Shown: positions 14,712 to 37,363 of the stretch, piece by piece
Layout: each line of letters begins with the position of its first letter
How positions within the stretch are numbered: position 1 is the stretch's first letter
NCBI GenBank assembly: GCA_010015805.1
Contig: ML978121.1
Span: 1,550,001-1,614,000 of the forward strand
Direction: 5' to 3'
DNA: 64,000 bases
Origin: Rhizodiscina lignyota
Lineage: Eukaryota
Notes under the pieces: generated by a model
Databases searched by the model: none
What the model was told of the DNA's origin: nothing
The model's input: the letters and a program-made list of their open reading frames with translations, nothing else
Position numbers and translations under genes: made by a program

Positions 14712-17700
14712 CTATCCAACGTCATGGCCCTTGTCTGGGTATTTTTGCATCCCTAACCGCAGCTCGCGCCATGTCGAAGCCGGAATGTATCTCAATCTCT
14801 CTCGTGCCCCCTTCTTGAGCGGAAATACACCTCGCACTCCGGGAGAGAATAGCCCTCTTAGGGCCCTGCTGCGCTTCTGCTCTGGCGTCCCCCAGAATCG
14901 TACAAGTAAGATCCAGTCCGGCAAGCTCATGCGAGCCCCTATGCGGCCATGCATATAGCGCCTAGAACCGAAGACGGCCATGGCGAGTTTGACGCGGCGG
15001 ATGAGACGGGCACGTTCTGTGGAGGGAGATGTTTGATTAGATGCGTGGTGCCGATGATCGTCATCCTGCGATGGTGATGAATGCGGTGGTGAGGTGATAG
15101 GGGTTCCAATAGACCTGGGCTCGAGTGGTGATTCTGCTTTAATCTCTTTGAGTACGGCTTCGACCTGTGGACACAGCACGGGCGGGAAAATATTGTGGTC
15201 TGCGTAGGTTGGCGGGTCCTGAATCACATGTTCGCTTTGCTCAGATCCAGAGGTAACAGTTTCCCTGTGCTCGTGACTCCGTGGCATGGTATTGGCCGGG
15301 CGTTTGGGTACATATTCGACGATCGCGTTGCCAAAGCCTTCTTCGACTTCGGCGATATTCATGTCATGAGAATCCTGTCCTGTCGCGCTTCCTCTATTGG
15401 CATCATTTCCTCCGATTGAAGCCTGCTGTTCGAACTTCGCATTCCTTTCGGTAGAATTGTCCATTCCCTGGCTGACGGGCTTGCCGTCGTCCATATCTCC
15501 AAGAACACGTTGGACTCCGAAAAGCATCTGCTCCAGAGTCCATGGATTGATCTGATAAGCACGCCTGTTCTGCTGCACATTGCTCCCATTGATGGGTGCA
15601 TACAGCTGCCACAGCCGGTTCGTCAGCGCCCTCACCACCCTGTCTTGGTCAATGTAGACGCCAAGAGAATGCAATTGTACGAGCAGCGCAAGACCACGAA
15701 GAGGATACAAGTCCGGCGGAGGCACCTCGAGATCCGAGAACAAGAAAGGATTCCAAGTAGAGGCCTTAGAACGAGACATCAATTGTTTCCAATCAGCGCT
15801 GCTCGCTGTTGTGTGCCTCATTTTCCACCACCGCTCCAGCTCCTTGAAGCCGGTCTGGAAGCCCCACTCGATAATTGCTCCTTGTCGCGCTGGAGGGAAA
15901 AATTGTCGGAGAAGATGCTGCTCATTGGAGTTTGGAAGCTTGCTTGTCGACGCCAACCATATCTGTTGTCGATCGCGGCGCTGAGCAGTAGTTACTATGC
16001 CCGTCCTGCTCGGAACACTGGACATTGCAAGTTGGTAGTTTCGAGCGAGCCAGATCAGCATGTGCGAAAGGTCTTTCCAGCGTCCAGTCATGCCAAGACG
16101 TCGAGTGATCTCTATCCACGCCCAAGGCTGGACTGGCCAGCCATCCTCGAAGAGACAACGGAGGAAATTTGCCAGGAAGAGGGTATCGTCGTAGTCTGAA
16201 ACAGGAGCAGGGCGATGACCTTGCCGCCTGGGTCGCAATTTGTGGCGGAAAATATGCGCGATGCTCACTCCTGTCAGCCTCGTGCCGCTCTGTCGAACTT
16301 CAGTGATGATTTCCATGAGTTGATTCCAGTCTGATTTCTCCGCGTGATGCTGAAGGAGCGCATTCCACTCGAAATTCTCCGCCCAATTGTGAAAATGCCT
16401 GAGGACATACAGGGTCCAATGCACATCCCCCCAGTTACCCTTCTGGAGATACGACTCGAGGAGCCGCATTTGGGTGTCTTTATCCTCCAGCACTTCAGGG
16501 TGCTGATCTGTAGATAGCAAAGTATTGTAGAGGGTCTCCCTCTTTTCTGTAGCAAGCTTGACAAGCGCAAGCGTAAAGACGCACTCGCGGACTGAGATTC
16601 CCGCCTCGCGGAGCCTTTGCACTTTCTCCAGTAAGCCCGAAGTGGAATTGACTCGAAGTGCAAGCTCTCTTAGGGCCAGCGGTCCTACCCATTCTGCCCC
16701 AAACGCACTAAGGCCCATGATGACAAAGTCAACCGGAAAAGCTTGAGTTGCGAAGAGCCGAGCACAGAATTGATCGCTGATATCGACAGGAGGAATATTG
16801 TGTACATGTCCCATGATTCTTGACATGACCTCATGAGTGAAATTTGAAATTGGTATCACGGACGAGCCCTCTGGCTTTTTGCTATATCTGTGGCTTGGGA
16901 GCGCTGCGAGTGATGGACTTGGAGAAGCTGGCGTGGATGTAAATACGAAGCGTCGAGATCCTGGGAATTCCATCTGCTTTACAAACGGATGATCTGCCAA
17001 AGCCAGTGACGGCCGGTCACCGTGCTGAATTAAAAGATAATGCCATTCGACAGCCATCTGATATTCTTTTTGCCGGCAGAGATATGGGATCAAGGTGTCA
17101 TACAAGCCCTTTGGCGTATCCCCATGTTGAATCAAAAGGTGATGCCACTCGGTAGCTTTCTCGAATTGCCGACGACAGCAGAGCAGATATATCAGAGTGT
17201 TGTATAGATCCCTTTGGTCCTCAGCAAGGTACAGTTCCTCGAATATTGACCAACACTCTGGGTCCCGTGGAATCATCTTTACGATTGCTTTAAGGATACC
17301 CTGGGGCACGTAGTATTGCTCCTTAAAGCGCATGTGCCAGTATAAAACGGCATGCCTAGATTCCCGAAAGCACTGCCGCATAATGCCAATGTACAACGAG
17401 GGATAGACTCTTCCAGTTCTCGACTTGATGCCGATTGCAAACTGGAACACATCGTCCCAAAGCTCGCGGTGCTTTCGTAGCAGTCTCCAGGTAACCTTCA
17501 CAGCATCATCTTCCTCGGGGAGATCAATTTCGAGGGTTATCATATCCTCCAAGACCCTCCGAATCCCGGAAGCCCCTTCCAGTCTGTCACTGGCTTCTAG
17601 AAGTTCCGGCCATTTCCAGTATAGAGTGTGTTCTTCTCTGTTCTGGCGTACGGCTCGAATTGGGGGAACGATGCTCGACGCAGGTGGGTGAGGAGGAGAG

Positions 17701-18218
17701 ATGCTGTTTGGGTCGAGGTCGACATGGTCTTCGCGATTCAACGGGAAGGCAAGTTTCCTCCATCCAGCTTTTCCAGTGTCCGGATGAGACTCGGTGCGCC
17801 TTTCCGTAGACCTAGCCCTGAGATGTCTGATAGGGACCGGCACATCGACTGGAGTGCGACGCACTGTTGGTGGTACTCCCCGCCGTCCATGCCGCTGTCG
17901 TTCTGATGCTACGTCCTCCTGCCTTTCTACATGCCTGGGAGCAACGAACTTGACGCGCACAGGCATATCAATGTAGAAGTTGCGAACCACATTGTGCCTT
18001 GCCTCTCCCGGTCCATGCTCTTGTCCGTCTTGTCCTGTATTCTTGTTCTTCCAATATTCGCCATCATGCACCTCGGCAAACCCCTTTTCATGAAGATGTC
18101 TGCAATTGCACGTGAAATTGCAAATACTTGGAAGCTCGGAGCTGGGATTCGAAAGTATCTTTCGTAAAGTTCGTAGCGCGTTGGGGTTCGCCAGGAGACG
18201 ATCTAATGCCGTTTGCAT
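14712..18218 (-). CDS. Large pentatricopeptide-repeat-type protein, probably mitochondrial
   Basis: Long single ORF; basic amphipathic N-terminus MQTALDRLLANPNAL; PPR-like helical repeats (LYNTLIYLLCCRRQFEKATEWHHLLIQHGD / LYDTLIPYLCRQKEYQMAVEWHYLLIQHGD). Confidence 0.75.
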   Translation of the reverse strand: MQTALDRLLANPNALRTLRKILSNPSSELPSICNFTCNCRHLHEKGFAEVHDGEYWKNKNTGQDGQEHGPGEARHNVVRNFYIDMPVRVKFVAPRHVERQEDVASERQRHGRRGVPPTVRRTPVDVPVPIRHLRARSTERRTESHPDTGKAGWRKLAFPLNREDHVDLDPNSISPPHPPASSIVPPIRAVRQNREEHTLYWKWPELLEASDRLEGASGIRRVLEDMITLEIDLPEEDDAVKVTWRLLRKHRELWDDVFQFAIGIKSRTGRVYPSLYIGIMRQCFRESRHAVLYWHMRFKEQYYVPQGILKAIVKMIPRDPECWSIFEELYLAEDQRDLYNTLIYLLCCRRQFEKATEWHHLLIQHGDTPKGLYDTLIPYLCRQKEYQMAVEWHYLLIQHGDRPSLALADHPFVKQMEFPGSRRFVFTSTPASPSPSLAALPSHRYSKKPEGSSVIPISNFTHEVMSRIMGHVHNIPPVDISDQFCARLFATQAFPVDFVIMGLSAFGAEWVGPLALRELALRVNSTSGLLEKVQRLREAGISVRECVFTLALVKLATEKRETLYNTLLSTDQHPEVLEDKDTQMRLLESYLQKGNWGDVHWTLYVLRHFHNWAENFEWNALLQHHAEKSDWNQLMEIITEVRQSGTRLTGVSIAHIFRHKLRPRRQGHRPAPVSDYDDTLFLANFLRCLFEDGWPVQPWAWIEITRRLGMTGRWKDLSHMLIWLARNYQLAMSSVPSRTGIVTTAQRRDRQQIWLASTSKLPNSNEQHLLRQFFPPARQGAIIEWGFQTGFKELERWWKMRHTTASSADWKQLMSRSKASTWNPFLFSDLEVPPPDLYPLRGLALLVQLHSLGVYIDQDRVVRALTNRLWQLYAPINGSNVQQNRRAYQINPWTLEQMLFGVQRVLGDMDDGKPVSQGMDNSTERNAKFEQQASIGGNDANRGSATGQDSHDMNIAEVEEGFGNAIVEYVPKRPANTMPRSHEHRETVTSGSEQSEHVIQDPPTYADHNIFPPVLCPQVEAVLKEIKAESPLEPRSIGTPITSPPHSSPSQDDDHRHHASNQTSPSTERARLIRRVKLAMAVFGSRRYMHGRIGARMSLPDWILLVRFWGTPEQKRSRALRGLFSPGVRGVFPLKKGARERLRYIPASTWRELRLGMQKYPDKGHDVG

Positions 18219-18557
18219 CAATTGAACAGATTCCACGAAGACTCAGCAGCGTCAACCATTAATCGCTGCTCCATCGATGGATCTAGGGAGTTGAGGTTAG
18301 CAGCTAGCAATCGCGGTTTCCAGTACGAGCTCGACTGTCGAAGCTTAAGCATCACCAAAACGCGCATTGAAGTCGGGTCTCTCGGCGGCGTCGGCGCGGA
18401 AAAATAAATTTCCGGACTGCCCTGAATGCCAAGCATCTCGGGATCATGAGAGCTTCAACGACTACGACTCTTTGAAGCTCACTCGAACCACCAATTGCCA
18501 GGCTCAATTGCTTCCTCCGCGTCTCCTACATCGAGTTCCAGCTCCACCGTCGCAACA

Positions 18558-19298: not shown

Positions 19299-21224
19299 TT
19301 ACTTCCGTTTCGCCTTGAATGTCTGTAAAGGATTGCTCTTCCTGCCACTGCTTGGCTTCCCTTTACCTCGCGCCCTATTCCTCAATCGACCTTTGCGAAT
19401 CTTATTCTCCTCCCCGGGCAGTTTTCTCAGCCCAACAAAGCCGACCTCACCCTGCGCCAATGCCTTCTTACTACCGTTCGGCAGTAAGTACTCAGGAACA
19501 TGCTTCAGATGCCCTTGTATTCTTGCCGCACGCAACTCGCCGTCATGTCGCAAGTGCTGCAGGTCGTCTGGATTCTCCTCGAAGTGACGTTTCAACTTCT
19601 CGCTCTTGATAAGTTCTTGCCGCAGCTCGCGCACACGAGCTTCCTTAACTGCTCCAGCTGTGACTGCTTTCAGCGCGTCAGCAAGACGATAGCGAAAGCC
19701 GTCCAGACGCTTCATGTCGAAATTGTACGGCTGGACCTTTTGACCTTTCTTCTCCTGATGTTTGATGATCTTGGCAAGTACTTCTTCATCATACTTTGTG
19801 GATGCAAAGCTTGTGCGTTTGTGCTTGCCGTACAGCTCCTTCGGAATTACGAACGACAATGCCATTCCACTTTTACCGGCACGTGCTGTACGGCCAATTC
19901 GGTGGGTGTAAGATTTCGAAGATGTTGGCAAATCGAAATTCAATACGCATGCGACGTTCTTGAAGTCGATACCGCGAGCCACGCCGTAGTCCTTGTCGCG
20001 CTTTGCTGTCTTCTGCTTCTTCCGAGGCCGCTCGACAGCACTGTCTTCCTGAACTCCGACACCCTCTTCTGCTTTCTCAATCTCTTCACCATTCGGGTTA
20101 TCCTGGGTAGGCGCCTGTCCGTCCTTGCTGTCACTGCTATTCGACTTTGAATTCTTCTTTGAGCCCTCGTTCCCAAACACTTCATCTTCGTCAGTAGCGA
20201 TGATAATGTTGTAGACATTCTTATTGAACTCTTCGACGACGTGTATGCGTGAATTGACTGGGAGCTCCGAATTGAGAACACAGCTCTTGAGCCCAAATTG
20301 CTCTAAGAACAATTTCAGCCTGTAGCAGCGCTCGATGTCGCCCACAAACACAATCGTCTTGCCCTTGATCAACTTGAGCATGAAGATGGCGTAAAGAAGA
20401 AGGAATTTCTCGTCCTCGGCACAGCGCACAACGTATTGGCTCACGCCTTCCGAGTCTTTCTCCTCTTCCTCCAGTTCGAGAATAACCGGATCTCTGCAGA
20501 AGAGCCCCTTCAGCGTGTCCACGTCCGCTCGCAGCGTTGCGCTCATCAGGGAAGTCTGAATGCCCTGCGGAATTGCCCTCGATATTTGTTTCAGGTCGTC
20601 CTCGTAGTCGTAACTAAGTATCAAATCCGCTTCGTCGATGACGAGGTGCGTCAGGTTTGCGAGAGACAGTGCGGAGGAATTGAGGTTTTGGACCACTCTT
20701 CCAGGTGTTGCAACGACAATGTCTGGCGAAGCGGCCAGTCGCGCCCTCTGCACATTATCATCCTCCTTCCGGGTAAGGTTCTCTGTCCGAACATCCTGAG
20801 AGCAGAACTTGGAGAGTGACTCGATGGCTTTGCTCACTTGCCCAGCAAGCTCACGCGTAGGTACGAGTATCAGTGCGGTCGTGCATGGTTCGAAGGAGTG
20901 GTCGGCTTTACGCTTGATGATAGATTGGAGGATGGGTAGGACGTATGCTGCAGTCTTTCCGGACCCGGTCTTCGATCGCGCTGTACACAATTAGACCTAG
21001 AAAGAACCGGGATCAGAAGCCGACTTACCCAGTACGTCTTTACCCTGGAGTGCGAGGGGAATTGCTCGAGTTTGCACAGGCGTGGGCCTCGCAAAGCCTT
21101 CATTCCTTATTCCTTGAAGAAGTCGCGCATCGAGTTGGAACTCTTCAAATGCTGAAATCTTCGAGTTCCCTGGTTGCGAATCTACCTCCTCCGGCTCGTC
21201 TTTCGCATTCAGTTTTCGCTTCAT
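19299..21224 (-). CDS. DBP9: DEAD-box RNA helicase Dbp9 (60S biogenesis), 2 exons
   Basis: MKRKLN start; Q motif [47 protein letters not shown]-terminal [21 protein letters not shown]. Confidence 0.93.
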
Positions 21225-22276: not shown

Positions 22277-23850
22277 TCAGGGCCTTCTGTGTTGCTTCCC
22301 TTTCCCTTTTCCCTTTCCCTTGGAGCTCTCGGCACTGGCCTCGGTCTGTGTCGCTGCTACCAATTTTTTAATGTAATTGATCTGGTCTTCGCGAGGCGCA
22401 TGCAGAAGGTAGTCTGCCATCTGGTCGTGTTGCGGCGTCTGCCGGGCCTTTAAGTGTGTAACCCAACCTTGAACACTCTGGTTATGTTGCGCATCCACGA
22501 CGTGTTGTAATTGGCCTGTTCCGACACCAGCATACCCAGAATCACCCTCTCCTTCCTCATCCTCATCTTCCTCATCGTTATCGTCATTATTGTCATCGTC
22601 TTGCTCTTCTCCTTCCTCAACATTAGCCAACCTCAACCGGGCTAACTGTTCTTGAATTTCATGTGCTGTATGACGTCCACGCACAGCCAGAGAACCTTCT
22701 TCAACAGTATCATCATCTTGTTCTTCTCCTTGATCTGACAGTTCGGGTAAGCTGAATACTTCCTTGAAATTGAGCACGAATTGGGTCTTGGATTCCTTTG
22801 CGACGGTCCCGAAGTCATAAACTTTCACGTTATGTTCAACAGGGTAGATCTTGTTGTAGTTAATTCTGGACATTGGATCCATTTTGTCCCCTTTAGACCG
22901 AGGCGTGACCTTAATTGGAGGCTGCATACCTTCCTCGCCAGCAGAGACTTTTTCCTCAGGTGCTGGCTTAGGTGGCTTGGAACTCGTATGGATGATGCCA
23001 TGGTGGCTTTTCACCACTGATGGCTTTCCAACCCCTTTCCCTTCGTAGGTCTGGATCGGAAGACACGAACTGTATCCAGGGCCCTCCTGGAGCACGGCAA
23101 ACCATCGAATCTTGGTGTGGACAGCTTCGCCGCTGAATGGGCCATCTGACAATACGGTTCCGCGATTCGGACCAGCAGGCTCCGACCAAAGAATTCTAAA
23201 GATCTGCAAAGTTCTACTCAGCGAAATATCTCGCAGTGGTGCGTATTACGGGAACACACTCTCCCCGGTTTGAAAAAATGGTCTGATGCTCTCCTGACCT
23301 TGTATCCTGAACATATCCTTAGCAAGAGCGATGTTGCAGAGCACACGAAACATACTCGGATCTAAAGACTCGTGGCTTCCCGTCGTCCCCCGTATGAACC
23401 TCTGTTGTAGGGATTGTTCAGAATCATAGGCGCCAGCGCCGCTCGGATGTGTAGAAGCAGACGGTCCGTAAGTAGTAGGATGCGTGATCGTTGGCTGCGC
23501 GTAAGGAGCTTGCACGGGAGAAGGATGATATTGCAGCGGAGTGGGCAGCGGAGCTGTCGGCCATGTCAGCTATCTCGTACACTCATCAGGCTTTGCGAGA
23601 CACTGGAGTCATCTCAGCTCTCTGTAACTCCGGGATTATGCAATGAAAGACCCGGACAGAGAAATTCCTGGAGGCAGGAAAACCAAGGAGGCTCCGAGGA
23701 TGGTGCTCATCGGGAAGTCGTACCGTGTGTCGCAGGCGCAACAGCAATCCGCTCTCCATCAGCGTACACATAGCAGTTCTCGGCCGGGCTGAAGTAGAAG
23801 TATTTTTGACGGGTTGGATCCCAGGTCCAGCCTGATGGATTGCTTGACAT
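22277..23850 (-). CDS. DUF6590-type protein, copy A (N-terminal W/Y-rich WW-like module, PemK/MazF-like core, acidic and GK tail), multi-exon
   Basis: Exon 1 MSSNPSGWTWDPTRQKYFYFSPAENCYVYADGERI; spliced core LDPRY..FFKPGR|IFRILWSEPAG..KIRWFAVL..CLPIQTYEGKG..HGII..MDPMSRINYNKIYPVEHNVKVYDFGTV; middle exon boundaries not all resolved. Confidence 0.82.
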
Positions 23851-24532
23851 GGTCACGATCCGACGGCATGGCAGTTGCGTGCATCTGAAGAAGTACTATC
23901 CGCCGAGGCTTTGAGAATTGCTATATGGCCATCTCACGGAGAAAAGCGGCTTGCTGTGCGGCTCTGGCATTGTGCTCATGACAGGACGCAGGCGCGGCTA
24001 AATCGCTGTTAGAGCGCGCGCAGCTTGCTTGTGATAGTCCCGTAGCCGTCCTTACGAGGCGGCGGATGTCGAGAGCTCGGTCAAACCTTACGCGACGGGA
24101 GCGCATCTCTCGTCCCCGTCGTTGCTCCCAATGATGCACCACGCTGACCCTCCACACGAGGGCGCGTTGCCCAATGAATCGCGCCTCTTCCGTCCGGGGC
24201 TTCCAATCTAGCTGATTGCCACTTTGCCTGCATGCCACCTCGACAGGCCAGCCTCGACGAAGTCACAGTGGCAGACAGGATGTGGCTTGCAGAGTGCAGG
24301 GAGCGCTGACGACCGTGCCTCAGCCCGCTGGCGGCTGGTCAAGGGCCAAGGCGATCGCGCCTGCGCAGCGCACCCTTTACATCTGCTACGGTGCACCACT
24401 GGGAACACCTTACACTTTTCCTACCGATGCTGCGTCAATAACCTCCGTCGCCGCGACGGCACAGGGAGCCTCAATTTTTGGCTATGATACTCTCTGCAGC
24501 GCTCTTACCGCCACAGCACGAAGCTTCCATGG

Positions 24533-26548
24533 ATGCTGGGCATTTTGAGAGCACCGAGCGCGATCCAGCAAGACAAACGATCATATTTCCCAGGTATCAC
24601 CTTTCGACGCGCGAGGCTGCCATTGATGCTGAAGCAGCAGAACAGCGAACCATTTATAGACTCGGAACGACCTTCTCATATATCCCACAAGCTCTCACAC
24701 CCTTCCACTCCCGCAGAACATGAGGAGGGCGCGGAGGAGATGGATGTCGGGAGGGTGCACTCTCTGAGCACGCTGACGGTGGCTGCCGAGCAAGGCGCGT
24801 GTGCGACGATCCCCTCTCCGAACCCTACGAGACAAGATGAGATACACGAGAGTCCTCTACGGTACGAGAACATAGAGATGTATCCTGAACCCTGGGTTCC
24901 GAGAGTTCCTCTGATGAATGGACGTCGGAATGTTGAGCTGCTGCAAGAAAGGGAGCAGCCAGAATCACTGGGTCGACGTACAAGTTCTTCGGACTTCTTG
25001 GAGTCGCATCATAGTGCTTCTGCCACATCATATGGAGAAGAATCTCCGCCAAATCTCGATACATCCCTCTTGCTCGGAGGGGGCGGACAATATCCGCCTC
25101 CTGCAGCACAGAAAATGAGGCCAATTCAGGATAAGCAAACTCAAGCAGTCGCCAATACTGACTTGTCAGCTTCGTCTCTACGGCTACCTCGACGTATACC
25201 GCAGTTGGTGCAAAGGCTTCGCGTGCAAAAAAGCAAAATCAACGCCGTGCGATCAGACGTTCGTGATCTCCGCAAGCAGTCTGCCAAAAAGCGAAAACGT
25301 GTACGCATTTCACAGGGACGGCTTTTGGAAGCGCAGACTACTGGTGCTGGAGTCAAGCCAGTCGTTATGGCTGACGAGAAACTTCTCCACCTCGCCGAGC
25401 GCATGAAAGTGGCCGAACGAGAATCCAAAGCGTCTGAGGAAAGCCTGGAAAGGGCAGAGAAACGACTCGAGAACTTAGAACACAAGTGGGAAGAGGGTCA
25501 CGAGGAGCTTGATAAGCTTCTAAGGCTGGTAATCTCAGAGGCAATTTTCGATGACGCAAGCGATGCGAACGAAGATGAAGCAACAGATTCCGACTTCGCT
25601 TCCGACTCTCCAAGCGACGACTTACCTCCTCTCGTCCGCAAGTACTACGATGCTGTTGGTCGAATCAATATCACAAGGGAGAGATTGAACGAATTTGAGA
25701 TCGGCCATCAGACAAGGCTGGCCAATAGGGAGCACGCCTTTGAAGAAATGCTAATTGATGGAAAAGTGCCAACCGAGTACATCGCCACGAACCATTTAGA
25801 TGAAGGACTTCTGAATGCCTGGTTTGTGGCATATCGCGATTTCCTGGACGATTATTTCATGATGAGGACCAGTATGGCCTGTGATCTTCTGTGCACGCAC
25901 AAAACGGCAGTTGAGGCCAAGCATCAATATCTTTTACAAACAATGCAGACTCCTGAAGATCCGGACGAGCCAGATGCATTGGACGAAGCAATCAAATACA
26001 ATCTGGACGGGCCCATAGGACGCATGTACGCATTGCACCATGAAGGGAAGCATCATGGCATCCGGCCCATAGAGCTGGTCCAAGTGCCATTTCTCCATTG
26101 GCAAGACCATGTGGAACACTGGAGGATGGAAGTGCTCAGAGAGACACGAGATGTGCCAGTTCAAGATGGTGTCGATCCCGCCACGTACAAACAGGATGAG
26201 CAAAACTCCGATCATTACCGCCGTGGCTTCCAACCCTACTATGATCTTGTCGTCCGCGACGAACGCAAGCTCACCCAATTTTCGGGATCAGCTACCGACT
26301 TTAAACCATCTCACATCATTCTGCCAATGGAAGATGATGTTTCTGGCGTTTCTCCACCATTGCCACCAGTTCACAATGTGTACACTTCGAGAGTGCATTG
26401 GACTTGTTGGTCTGGTGAATTTGAACGCCCTGGACGTCCGCAGTCGATGCCAGACATGTCGCGGACCAGGAAGGGGGACCCTTTCTCTATATGGTCGAAA
26501 ACGAAGCAATCAACATGGGACTGGCAACGGGACATGTTAACAGTATGA
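24533..26548 (+). CDS. Uncharacterised coiled-coil protein, partner A (divergent to DUF6590 copy A)
   Basis: 671-aa uninterrupted ORF (true start may be a later Met); heptad-rich middle; C-terminal block homologous to 30453-31826. Confidence 0.8.
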   Translation: MLGILRAPSAIQQDKRSYFPGITFRRARLPLMLKQQNSEPFIDSERPSHISHKLSHPSTPAEHEEGAEEMDVGRVHSLSTLTVAAEQGACATIPSPNPTRQDEIHESPLRYENIEMYPEPWVPRVPLMNGRRNVELLQEREQPESLGRRTSSSDFLESHHSASATSYGEESPPNLDTSLLLGGGGQYPPPAAQKMRPIQDKQTQAVANTDLSASSLRLPRRIPQLVQRLRVQKSKINAVRSDVRDLRKQSAKKRKRVRISQGRLLEAQTTGAGVKPVVMADEKLLHLAERMKVAERESKASEESLERAEKRLENLEHKWEEGHEELDKLLRLVISEAIFDDASDANEDEATDSDFASDSPSDDLPPLVRKYYDAVGRINITRERLNEFEIGHQTRLANREHAFEEMLIDGKVPTEYIATNHLDEGLLNAWFVAYRDFLDDYFMMRTSMACDLLCTHKTAVEAKHQYLLQTMQTPEDPDEPDALDEAIKYNLDGPIGRMYALHHEGKHHGIRPIELVQVPFLHWQDHVEHWRMEVLRETRDVPVQDGVDPATYKQDEQNSDHYRRGFQPYYDLVVRDERKLTQFSGSATDFKPSHIILPMEDDVSGVSPPLPPVHNVYTSRVHWTCWSGEFERPGRPQSMPDMSRTRKGDPFSIWSKTKQSTWDWQRDMLTV

Positions 26549-28220: not shown

Positions 28221-29676
28221 CTACGTCGCCCCGGCGTAATCAACCGCTGATGTCGCTGCTGCAGCCCGGATATTCCAGACGTTGTAAAAGCTCTGCAGAA
28301 GGATCCTTTTATACTGGTGATGTACTTCACCATATTCGAAGACTTTCACGTTATGTTCTATCGTATAGATCTTTCCGTAGTTCAATCGTGAGATTGAATC
28401 CATTGGCTGGCCCTTCGTAAATGGTTTCACGCGGATCGCATGCTGCATTAAATCCTCGTTTTCTTTCGGTTTCTCCGCTGCCTGTAGCTTAGGCACTTCT
28501 GAGCTGGCGTATATGATGGCATGATGCTCCTTGATTACATCCTTTTTGGATATACCCCTTCGTCCGTACGTTTGAACTGGTCTGATACCCTTAGTATTGG
28601 TTGGAGCAAGCATATAGGCCTGGCACTCACAGACATAGACAATAATCGCTACCTTCTGTTACGACCACAAACCATCTGATCTTTACGCCAATCGGCTGTT
28701 TAAATCTTGCTTCTGTTGCGACCGTGATTCCTGAATTGTCATCTCCGAGCAATTCTGGCCAGAGTATCTTAAATACCTACAACAGGCAAAGATATTAGTC
28801 TACGATCAAACAGCGCCAGATAATAATTATCAACAATTCAGAAATACAGGGAAAGATAATGACTTGACAAACCTTTCCAATGGTGAAGAACTTCGGGCCT
28901 TCTCGTCTTCGATATCCTGTAGTGTCTCCTGTCAATTATATACAGATGGCGCGGAAGCTACTAAAACCTACGCGGATCGAGGCCCTCTTCTTCACCGTCC
29001 GTAGCTTTCAGTTTTCTATACGAGCGCAAACCAGCAGCGTACTGGTTTTCGTCGACAAAAGTCCCATGCTCGCTGATCTCAATGTCCCGAAGCGGTAACT
29101 GCGTCGAAGTCTCTTGCGCATCCACCTGTGCGGCGGCGTCATGTCCTTCTGAGCTCTCAGCTAGTTAGGATGAGGAATCAAAGGGCTAATCGTAGGGGCC
29201 CGGAGCGAAAAGAATGAGGCTCAAGCATCTTGGTAGAGGATTCATTCCGAATCAGTGACACCACACGAAGACTCACCCTCATTGAGAGCGACCTGTGCAA
29301 ACGAACCAGTAAGTCTATCAACAGACTCGTAGTGTCTCCCAGGCTGCAAGTTATATTGCCGAGTTTCGGTGCTGCTATCGCTAGACGACCGACCATGCGA
29401 GTATGGTACGGCAGTAGGTAGTGGTGCATATTGCGCACTCGGCAGCAAGCGTGGATCCGCCGATGAACTGATCGACTATAACGTTAGATATCTTACTTAG
29501 GTCATCTGAGAGCGTGCGTACTGCTGCTCGCTGGCACCGTACGTAGGCTGCTGCGTGGCTGCCCATGGCTCTGCGGGAAGTCGTTGGCCGTTCTGAAAGA
29601 CCCAACATCCTTCCTGAGCCAGCCAGATTCTGTACTGCTGGTAGGTTGGATCCCAATGCCAGTTCACAGACATCAT
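28221..29676 (-). CDS. DUF6590-type protein, copy B, multi-exon
   Basis: Exon 1 MMSVNWHWDPTYQQYRIWLAQEGCWVFQNGQRL; spliced core GLDPRY..FFTIGK|VFKILWPE..KIRWFVVV..CLCL|PVQTYGRRG..HHAIIY..MDSISRLNYGKIYTIEHNVKVFEYGEV; GT..CTRAY..YAG introns; N-terminal exon joins only partly resolved. Confidence 0.8.
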
Positions 29677-35207: not shown

Positions 35208-37363
35208 ATGGCCAGCGAAGGAGGAGTCAAACGACCAGGAAGAGTCGTAACGGCATGTACAGAATGCCAACGACGTAAACAAAAAGTTGTTATCCTTGGA
35301 TACCCGCTGACAATCCAGGAAGCTGATCCCCCTCGCAGTGCGACCGCAAAAGGCCTTGTAACTTTTGCGAAGCAAGAGATGTTGGTAGTAAATGCATCTA
35401 TATCAATCAAGGTAAGATAAAACATTTCATAGCCGACTTGCTTCACTATGTTTCGTGTTATTGCAGGCATTCAAGGTGTTCGTTTTGCTGTGAAAGAATC
35501 ACTAATACTAGTGACAATTCAGTCGCGAAAGCATCCAATTTGTGTCTCAGCCTCCAGCACCACATCGAAAATGATCAACGATCTGAGCTTGCGTTGAAGA
35601 GCGAGGAGTTAAAGAATGAGCAGGAAAGCCTTCTTCATGGAGACTTGGGAGATCTCCTTCAAGATGACAACTGGTTCAGAGCTGCCACTTATGATCGAAA
35701 GGCTTTTCGAACCCTTCATGATCAGCAACAAAGAGCTGCTGATATTATCCAACGACTTCCTTCACCGGAAATCATGAATGAATTGGTCCACAACTTCTTC
35801 AATGAAGTCCATTGGTTCTATATCATGCCCGATAAGGACCTCTTTACCGAAGATCTCTCTCGGTGGCTCGCCGCTTACCCCCATGGTTCCAAAATCGAGA
35901 CATTCACGAAAGATATGGAAGCCTTTCCAGCGGTCTTATTCCAGATTCTCGCCCTAAGCCTCCATTTTACGACACCAGATTGCACAGCAGCAGACACACT
36001 GGCTGTGAGAGATCCCACTAGTTCCGACAGGCTCTCAAGATACTTTAGTGACGCTGGTATGGAGTTGCTCGACACCTTAGGCCGCCATAATCCTAGCATA
36101 ATGTTTGTTCAAGCAGATTTTCTCCGCACAGCTTGGCTTAAAAATTGCGGCCGTTCAACGGAGGCGTGGCAGACCTTGGGGACGGCTATAAGGCAAGCAC
36201 AGGAGCTTCGCCTTCACCGAAAGGGCAAGTTGAAGAAATATTCTACAGATGAAGAGGAACAGAGAGCCATGTGGTACGATGAATACAAGAGCCGACTTTG
36301 GGCCGGACTGTTTGCCTGGGACAGCTTACTAGCGTGGGTACAAGGCCGATCCCGCCGTATTCACATCAATGACTGCGACGTGCCACCGCCGAGGGATCGC
36401 TGCTCTGCAACTAAGATGACCCGGTTTATCTCTCAAAACAAAAACGATTCAAAAGACAGAGATCCCGTCATCACCGGCCTCTTATTTCATTATACGATCT
36501 CTCAATTGGTTCACAATATGCGAGACGCGCATGTTGAGAGGGATCTGGGTGAGAAGTATGACAGTGTCCGACAACTGCATCAAGAAGTACTATCTCTGCT
36601 TGAGAATCTGCCGGATATCCTCAGTCCATACAAGACGAACACCTCTTGGGATGCAGCCATGCCCAATCTTCCACGCCAACGAGAGCAATTGTTTAGCTTA
36701 ACTCATCACACGTTGATGGGCTTGCATCGTGCTCAAATCGCCAATCATGTCGAAAGTCGAACCGAGTTTACGAACTCCGCAATGCTGTGTCTCGAGTCGC
36801 AAGAACGTTTCTTCCGAATGACTCCAAGGCACCAGTACAGACTCTACGGACTGATGTACTACACAATTGACGCTGCAATCATGCTGTCGGCAATAACTGT
36901 TACTTACCCTCCCGAAGATCCTGTACTCCGCAGGCGCACATCTGATAATCTGCAAAAGGCTATCGAGCGTTTGGAGTTGATGAAGGACTGCAACCCAACA
37001 GCAACCTCGGGCTTGAAGCTCATCAATCGGTGCTACCAGAAAGTCAGAGATGTGCTAGACACCAACCTGCCGTGGCAGGGAGACTTGGTGTCTGAAATAC
37101 CGAGATCAATTGGAGCACTCTCAACGCCAAATGCTGAGCACGGCGATACACTCACGAAGTCAGGAGCGCCTCCTGATATGGCGCAGGACATCCAAGGAGC
37201 AGATCGAAACGAACTCATCTCAACGGCATTGTTTGATGAGTTGTCAAATGAGACTTTCGATGATGCCTTCTTGCTTGATCAGTTGAACCCATTGCCCGCT
37301 CTACCCTTCGGGGAATCCACGATATTCGACTGGGAGTCTTTGTTCCACGACGCAAACTCATGA
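35208..37363 (+). CDS. Zn(II)2Cys6 transcription factor with fungal TF middle homology region
   Basis: ACTECQRRKQK|CDRKRPCNFCEARDVGSKC across an intron; AWQTLGTAIRQAQELRLHR; RLWAGLFAWD. Confidence 0.92.

Follow-up and report, generated by a model that had tools for sequence, protein, structure and literature searches.

Toxins of the CcdB/MazF fold are regarded as a speciality of prokaryotes and plasmids. A locus in the genome of Rhizodiscina lignyota raises the question of whether an RNA-cutting domain of this kind is also encoded by fungi. The locus was analysed within a stretch of 64,000 nucleotides (nt), referred to as the window (assembly GCA_010015805.1, contig ML978121.1, positions 1,550,001 to 1,614,000, forward strand), which is fungal DNA with short introns. 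Two genes on its minus strand, located 5 kb from each other and designated copy A and copy B, specify proteins containing DUF6590 (PF20233), a Pfam domain of unknown function; both are full members of this family. An original prediction made from the sequence had claimed that the DUF6590 core of copy A parallels the fold of the PemK/MazF ribonucleases and that the catalytic arginine and threonine are kept. The structure predictions described below point to this fold and suggest that fungi may possess a large family of MazF-type RNA-cutting proteins; 'eukaryotic MazF-like endoribonuclease' is a name that may be inferred for copy A from these models.

The copy A gene and the predicted fold of its product

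The gene for copy A (22280..23850, minus strand) consists of four exons (23724-23850, 23356-23553, 23260-23306, and 22280-23203) and ends with a stop codon at 22277-22279. The single run listed for this stretch (X1) is a DNA record containing it in unspliced form, probably the source assembly. According to the splice sites, the product of the gene is a protein of 432 amino acids (aa), P0004, with 100% identity over the domain; the only source names of P0004 are hypothetical or 'DUF6590 domain-containing protein' from R. lignyota. The peptides quoted in the original prediction are contained in the minus-strand open reading frame (ORF) 22277-23245, and exon 22280-23203 translates to IFRILWSEPAG...KIRWFAVL...SSCLPIQTY...SRINYNKIYPVEHNVKVYDFGTVAKESKTQFVLNFKEVF. 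The preceding 'G-R' is encoded upstream in the 47-nt exon 23260-23306, and with this exon included all quoted strings were recovered from the window. The last exon region matches DUF6590 with an E value of 6.6e-43, and P0004 with 1.9e-47 over residues 118-266 (22778-23280). The scores of 146.8-161.5 bits are above the Pfam gathering score of 27 bits. The domain that may be MazF/CcdB-like extends over residues 116-279 of P0004 (22739..23286) and is interrupted by the intron 23204-23259.

For the conserved DUF6590 core of 150-160 residues, the CcdB/MazF/Kid toxin fold, in which a C-terminal helix closes an SH3-like barrel, was obtained by prediction. This assignment agrees with the fold originally claimed. 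Support comes from two models calculated with AlphaFold2 (AF2), from two programs for structure alignment, and from a look-up with a protein language model; the likeness at the structure level is clearly above chance. The domain model was calculated from an alignment of 70 sequences, for which shorter proteins were chosen among 150 listed family matches. It reached a mean predicted local distance difference test score (pLDDT) of 93.0 and a predicted template modelling (TM) score of 0.84, and shows strands at residues 2-9, 27-40, 44-51, 68-72, 94-101, 113-115, 120-123, and 128-134, followed by the C-terminal helix. Foldseek searches with this model gave weak matches (E 0.23-2.3), 24 of the 32 listed being MazF or CcdB structures. 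With the full-length model, based on a different alignment of 61 sequences, all 31 listed matches were of the MazF type (E 4.4e-3 to 7.9e-2, probability 0.87-1.00, target-normalised TM score 0.46-0.64). The better match is attributed to FFKPGR and the residues upstream of it, an N-terminal extension of the domain that is included in the full-length model. When DUF6590 clusters were skipped in the language-model protein atlas, PemK/MazF toxins were the best clusters carrying a Pfam family; their score of 0.84 lies below the 0.9 level and is taken as a lead only.

Conserved residues and a candidate active site

Sequence profiles were compared by hhalign, using the 70 DUF6590 sequences and 30 MazF sequences chosen at no more than 85% identity from 120 listed ones. 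One match of 12 columns, PGYSSCLPIQTY to TGMCLCVPCTTQ, was obtained with a probability of 2.2-2.7% and a P value of 0.017; a reversed MazF profile scored 11.3. When ChpB-like sequences (45 of 64 eligible) were added, the register stayed the same, while the score was not maintained (1.6%, P 0.031). Taken alone, this sequence likeness is marginal. The match falls where it had been placed in the original prediction, for which E. coli MazF had been aligned by eye; the MazF strings quoted there agree with the translation of MazF from E. coli K-12. In its core, C47 and P49 of the domain are paired with C48 and P50 of MazF, respectively. In a low-confidence extension of the alignment, W6 is opposite to W14, and R33-W-F-A-V-L is opposite to R29-P-A-V-V-L. 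W14 and R29 are present in all 30 MazF sequences, and G92 is conserved in at least 90% of them.

Conservation within DUF6590 was determined from 182 near-complete domains out of 215 domain instances. W6 and G132 are present in all 182 and R33 in 181, and position 52 is occupied by threonine in 155 and by serine in 22. Further polar positions are H68 (174 of 182), R113 (172), E8 (170), N125 (168), K127 (165), S112 (163), H124 (161), and E84 (159); in the family alignment, H68 is a histidine in 70 out of 70 sequences. The many conserved charged residues suggest an active site. In copy A, the codons for R33, T52, and H68 are located on the minus strand at 23105..23107, 23048..23050, and 23000..23002, specifying R157, T176, and H192 of P0004. 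R33 is the arginine of the KIRWF motif and a candidate equivalent of MazF R29, which is plausible from its near-invariance and the low-confidence alignment. T52 is the threonine of QTY. For H68 no MazF counterpart could be assigned, and in the 30 MazF sequences no invariant positions were seen that match the near-invariant polar residues of DUF6590. Copy B keeps KIRWF and QTY, as had been stated before, and also the double histidine, SR, and EHNVK.

Architecture of copy A and related proteins

In the model of full-length P0004, a small beta module at residues 6-40 (23731..23835, minus strand; pLDDT 91-96) is followed by a disordered linker (42-100), the domain (about 101-285), and a tail. The N-terminal module forms a mini-sheet of four short strands. 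Its motif, W-x-W-D followed by an aromatic run and Y-x-Y-x-D/N-G, is found in both copies of the window (in copy B at about 29580-29676, minus strand) and in 46 of 183 family proteins starting with methionine. The motif looks WW-like; no Pfam match was obtained for the module at E ≤ 1.

The tail follows a basic domain, with a net charge of +5 in copy A and a family median of +4. It comprises 162 aa with a net charge of -21 in copy A and contains an acidic disordered part, defined by charge and pLDDT (P0004 about 279-345; 22541..22741, minus strand), and a C-terminal helical region (365-417; 22325..22483, minus strand). The pLDDT is below 50 at residues 286-301 and 320-381 and 67-86 in the terminal helices. 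Applying the criterion of at least ten D or E residues in a window of 20 aa, acidic stretches were detected in 86 of 138 tails on the C-terminal side of the domain, compared to 11 of 157 on the N-terminal side. That an acidic tail usually comes after the basic domain is reported here as new; by analogy to toxin-antitoxin pairs, such a tail could be a built-in antitoxin mimic. The acidic tails also produced spurious Pfam and PDB matches to other acidic proteins, among them NOA36, CDC45, and PELP1.

Proposed function and alternative explanations

The explanation tentatively preferred, with a likelihood judged to be somewhat short of even, is that DUF6590 is a domain of the CcdB/MazF fold and a distant relative of this superfamily, constituting a basic, single-stranded-RNA-binding and probably RNA-cleaving module. 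The arginine of KIRWF would take the role of MazF R29, and H68, E84, S112-R113, and H124-N125-x-K127, which are absent from MazF, would act as helpers. A separate antitoxin gene is missing; instead, most family members have a disordered and strongly acidic tail directly after the basic domain. MazE inhibits MazF through its acidic C-terminal segment, and the titles of the PDB entries 5CQX and 5CQY name MazF together with MazE residues 68-82. It is by analogy to this segment, which acts in trans, that the tail is speculated to mask the RNA groove in cis. A more far-reaching version appears unlikely. It would have filamentous fungi contain single-chain toxin-antitoxin-like proteins (2,375 clusters) composed of a MazF-fold endoribonuclease, an acidic RNA-mimicking inhibitor tail, and a WW-like targeting module. 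In these proteins, which would form the first eukaryotic MazF/CcdB branch, the nuclease would be freed by cleavage or phosphorylation of the tail in stress, defence or cell-death signalling.

A number of results speak against a MazF-type ribonuclease with a masking tail, the first of which concern the relationship to MazF. In a BLASTP comparison of copy A with MazF, the E value was 0.056 and the register differed from the one originally proposed. The claimed sequence match was found by hhalign in the predicted place, but its probability is only 1.6-2.7% overall with matches of 10-12 columns, and 2 of 80 column-shuffled MazF profiles reached the real score (mean 12.9, standard deviation 2.8; real score 19.0). 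MazF, Kid or CcdB chains were not detected in the PDB, neither by phmmer with the single domain nor by hmmsearch with the profile of 70 sequences; these searches returned chance or acidic low-complexity matches only. When the 70 members were compared to Pfam at E ≤ 10, 72 families were matched, and neither PemK_toxin nor CcdB is among the 25 most-matched families listed.

The second group of results concerns catalysis. According to an excerpt of a published study (PMC8887465), the catalytic pair is R29 and T52 in E. coli MazF, and R25 and T48 in B. subtilis MazF and S. aureus PemK. In the hhalign register, MazF T52 is opposite to position 51 of the DUF6590 domain, which is variable (Q in 48, T in 27, L in 23, A in 19, V in 18, and N in 14 of 182), and the conserved domain T52 is opposite to MazF T53. 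The threonine of DUF6590 is therefore probably shifted by one relative to the catalytic threonine of MazF, and from the claim that both catalytic residues are kept, only the part on the arginine remains plausible. In ChpB, too, the threonine is positioned two residues after the proline (A-P-I-T), in DUF6590 three residues after it. The same excerpt reports that the T49A exchange of S. aureus PemK, affecting the second threonine, left RNA affinity intact with little activity lost, and it mentions other catalytic residues, R73, H17, and D75 in Kid and, as predicted ones, H59 and E78 in MoxT (PMC8887465). The fold alone does not predict ribonuclease chemistry, since CcdB with the same fold is titled a topoisomerase poison and Kid and MoxT are reported to use other residues. 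Finally, the protein of copy B stops soon after the domain, and an acidic tail is lacking there.

If the fold is correct and a nuclease activity is nevertheless missing, DUF6590 may bind RNA, DNA, a phosphorylated ligand or, comparable to CcdB and GyrA, a protein, and act as an adaptor in otherwise disordered proteins. This is a possibility to be taken seriously, if a rather doubtful one. About fifteen polar residues conserved at 85-100% exceed what is usually needed for a simple binding surface, and the conserved set includes two histidines, two arginines, and one lysine, as is typical of metal-independent ribonucleases. The combination of a basic domain and an acidic tail also suits a masked nucleic-acid site. 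Convergence or a modelling artefact would mean that the small beta barrel of DUF6590 with its terminal helix is unrelated and that the matches to MazF reflect a common arrangement; this explanation is considered decidedly unlikely. Least probable is an enzyme of MazF-like fold with another chemistry. It might be a phosphoesterase or a transferase whose substrate is a nucleotide or a modified RNA end, and would use the His/Arg/Glu set in place of the Arg/Thr pair. The near-invariance of H68, E84, R113, and H124-N125-x-K127, to which no invariant positions of the 30 MazF sequences correspond, would fit, but no such activity is known for the superfamily members named by the structure searches, and Pfam revealed no resemblance in sequence to enzyme families of this type.

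Should DUF6590 be a true relative of MazF, a testable function would be available for thousands of 'hypothetical' fungal proteins, and a classic toxin fold would be extended to eukaryotes. With the proposed masking, toxin control would be exerted in cis by the acidic tail instead of by a partner gene. Even as a binding module only, an unannotated family would have gained a clear fold assignment.

Comparison with known toxins

DUF6590 is not a member of the Pfam family PemK_toxin. The gathering score of PF02452 (23.1 bits) was not reached, and the 146-aa core P0002 matches DUF6590 alone at E ≤ 10. For comparison, E. coli MazF scores 84.8 bits with PF02452, and a genome search with this model detected two E. 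coli genes only. Accordingly, the MazF/PemK toxins of this family (S. aureus PemK 7EWI, S. aureus MazF 4MZM, E. coli MazF 1UB4) share with the DUF6590 models the predicted CcdB/MazF fold, an SH3-like barrel with a C-terminal helix, and differ from DUF6590 in several respects. The DUF6590 domain has about 40 extra loop residues, its conserved threonine appears displaced by one in the profile alignment, and additional invariant His, Arg, and Glu residues are present. Unlike the toxin genes, the gene for copy A belongs to a eukaryote, contains introns, and has no antitoxin gene as a neighbour, and its domain forms one part of a 432-aa protein that also comprises an N-terminal beta module and an acidic tail. 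DUF6590 may be described as a branch or analogue of the CcdB/MazF toxin fold that is fungal, single-chain, and intron-bearing; the original prediction is partly supported.

Differences were also noted for other toxins. The gyrase poison CcdB (1VUB, 2VUB, 4ELZ) is a topoisomerase poison according to its PDB title and not a ribonuclease, and no sequence likeness to DUF6590 was seen. Kid/PemK of plasmid R1 (1M1F) is described in the above-mentioned excerpt as using Arg73, His17, and Asp75 for catalysis (PMC8887465). The type III toxins CptN, ToxN, and AbiQ (4RMO, 4ATO, 4GLK) are inhibited by RNA repeats. Neither this feature nor the residue set of Kid was found for DUF6590, no test being aimed at them.

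In a literature search, no paper mentioning DUF6590 or PF20233 was found; an automated fold label may exist in InterPro, CATH or AlphaFold DB. A search for fungal MazF-like proteins gave unrelated papers only. As stated in an excerpt of a survey from 2008 (PMC2446400), no match in a eukaryotic genome satisfied all criteria for any toxin family, and the eukaryotic matches of weaker categories given there are ParE- and Doc-like, with none for CcdB or MazF. Two entries labelled eukaryotic, P0323 and P0345 (a 'PemK and Antitoxin-MazE' protein of Trichuris trichiura and a eukprot entry), share 96-98% identity with E. coli ChpB and are probably due to contamination of eukaryote assemblies by bacteria rather than to eukaryotic PemK genes.

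Distribution of DUF6590

A phmmer search with P0002 in 1.84 billion representatives revealed 2,375 proteins up to an E value of 1e-3, a number referring to clusters at 50% identity; 1,081 were found with E ≤ 1e-10 and 33 with E ≤ 1e-30. Every source name seen for DUF6590 proteins was that of a filamentous ascomycete. Close relatives in prokaryotes were searched in 185,579 species with an alignment of ten rows, a method that finds close relatives only; of 16 pattern matches none was confirmed by tblastn. In the protein atlas, a cluster without a name, which consists of 152-aa proteins (57% Bacteria, most commonly Planctomycetota), scored 0.87 with the DUF6590 core, ranking second and above the PemK clusters, and could represent an intermediate family.

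The number of domains per protein was determined in a sample of 195 proteins, 150 listed phmmer matches and 45 from a second set. One domain is present in 177, two in 16, and three in 2, so that 18 of the 195 proteins contain two or three. Tandem domains fit a pairing of domains as in MazF. Fusions to other domains are rare (carriers P0133, P0274, P0276, and P0109): ankyrin repeats were detected in one of 30 long proteins scanned, and SH3, protein kinase, and a fragment from the end of a PigL_N domain in one of 31 proteins each.

Copy B and neighbouring genes

The DUF6590 domain of copy B (28224..28776, minus strand) is encoded by two exons, 28631-28776 and 28224-28581, separated by a 49-nt intron (28582-28630) and followed by the stop codon at 28221-28223. 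Upstream exons extend to an ATG near 29676, their structure being partly resolved. The two pieces match Pfam DUF6590 with E values of 9.2e-08 and 1.6e-24 (32.7 and 87.1 bits), and their identity to copy A amounts to 40% and 46%. A scan of all six frames with the hidden Markov model of the family revealed no third copy in the window. Among the Pfam matches of neighbouring ORFs no antitoxin family was found, and both copies are single intron-containing genes.

Between the two copies, an ORF of 686 aa is present on the opposite strand (24488-26548, plus), which has no Pfam family; the same applies to other flanking ORFs. A long ORF at 14712-18242 (minus) shows weak matches to PPR repeats below the cut-off. 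The ORF at 19299-20990 (minus) specifies a DEAD-box helicase (E 1.7e-32), and the one at 35327-37363 (plus) a protein with a fungal-specific transcription factor domain (E 4.2e-15).
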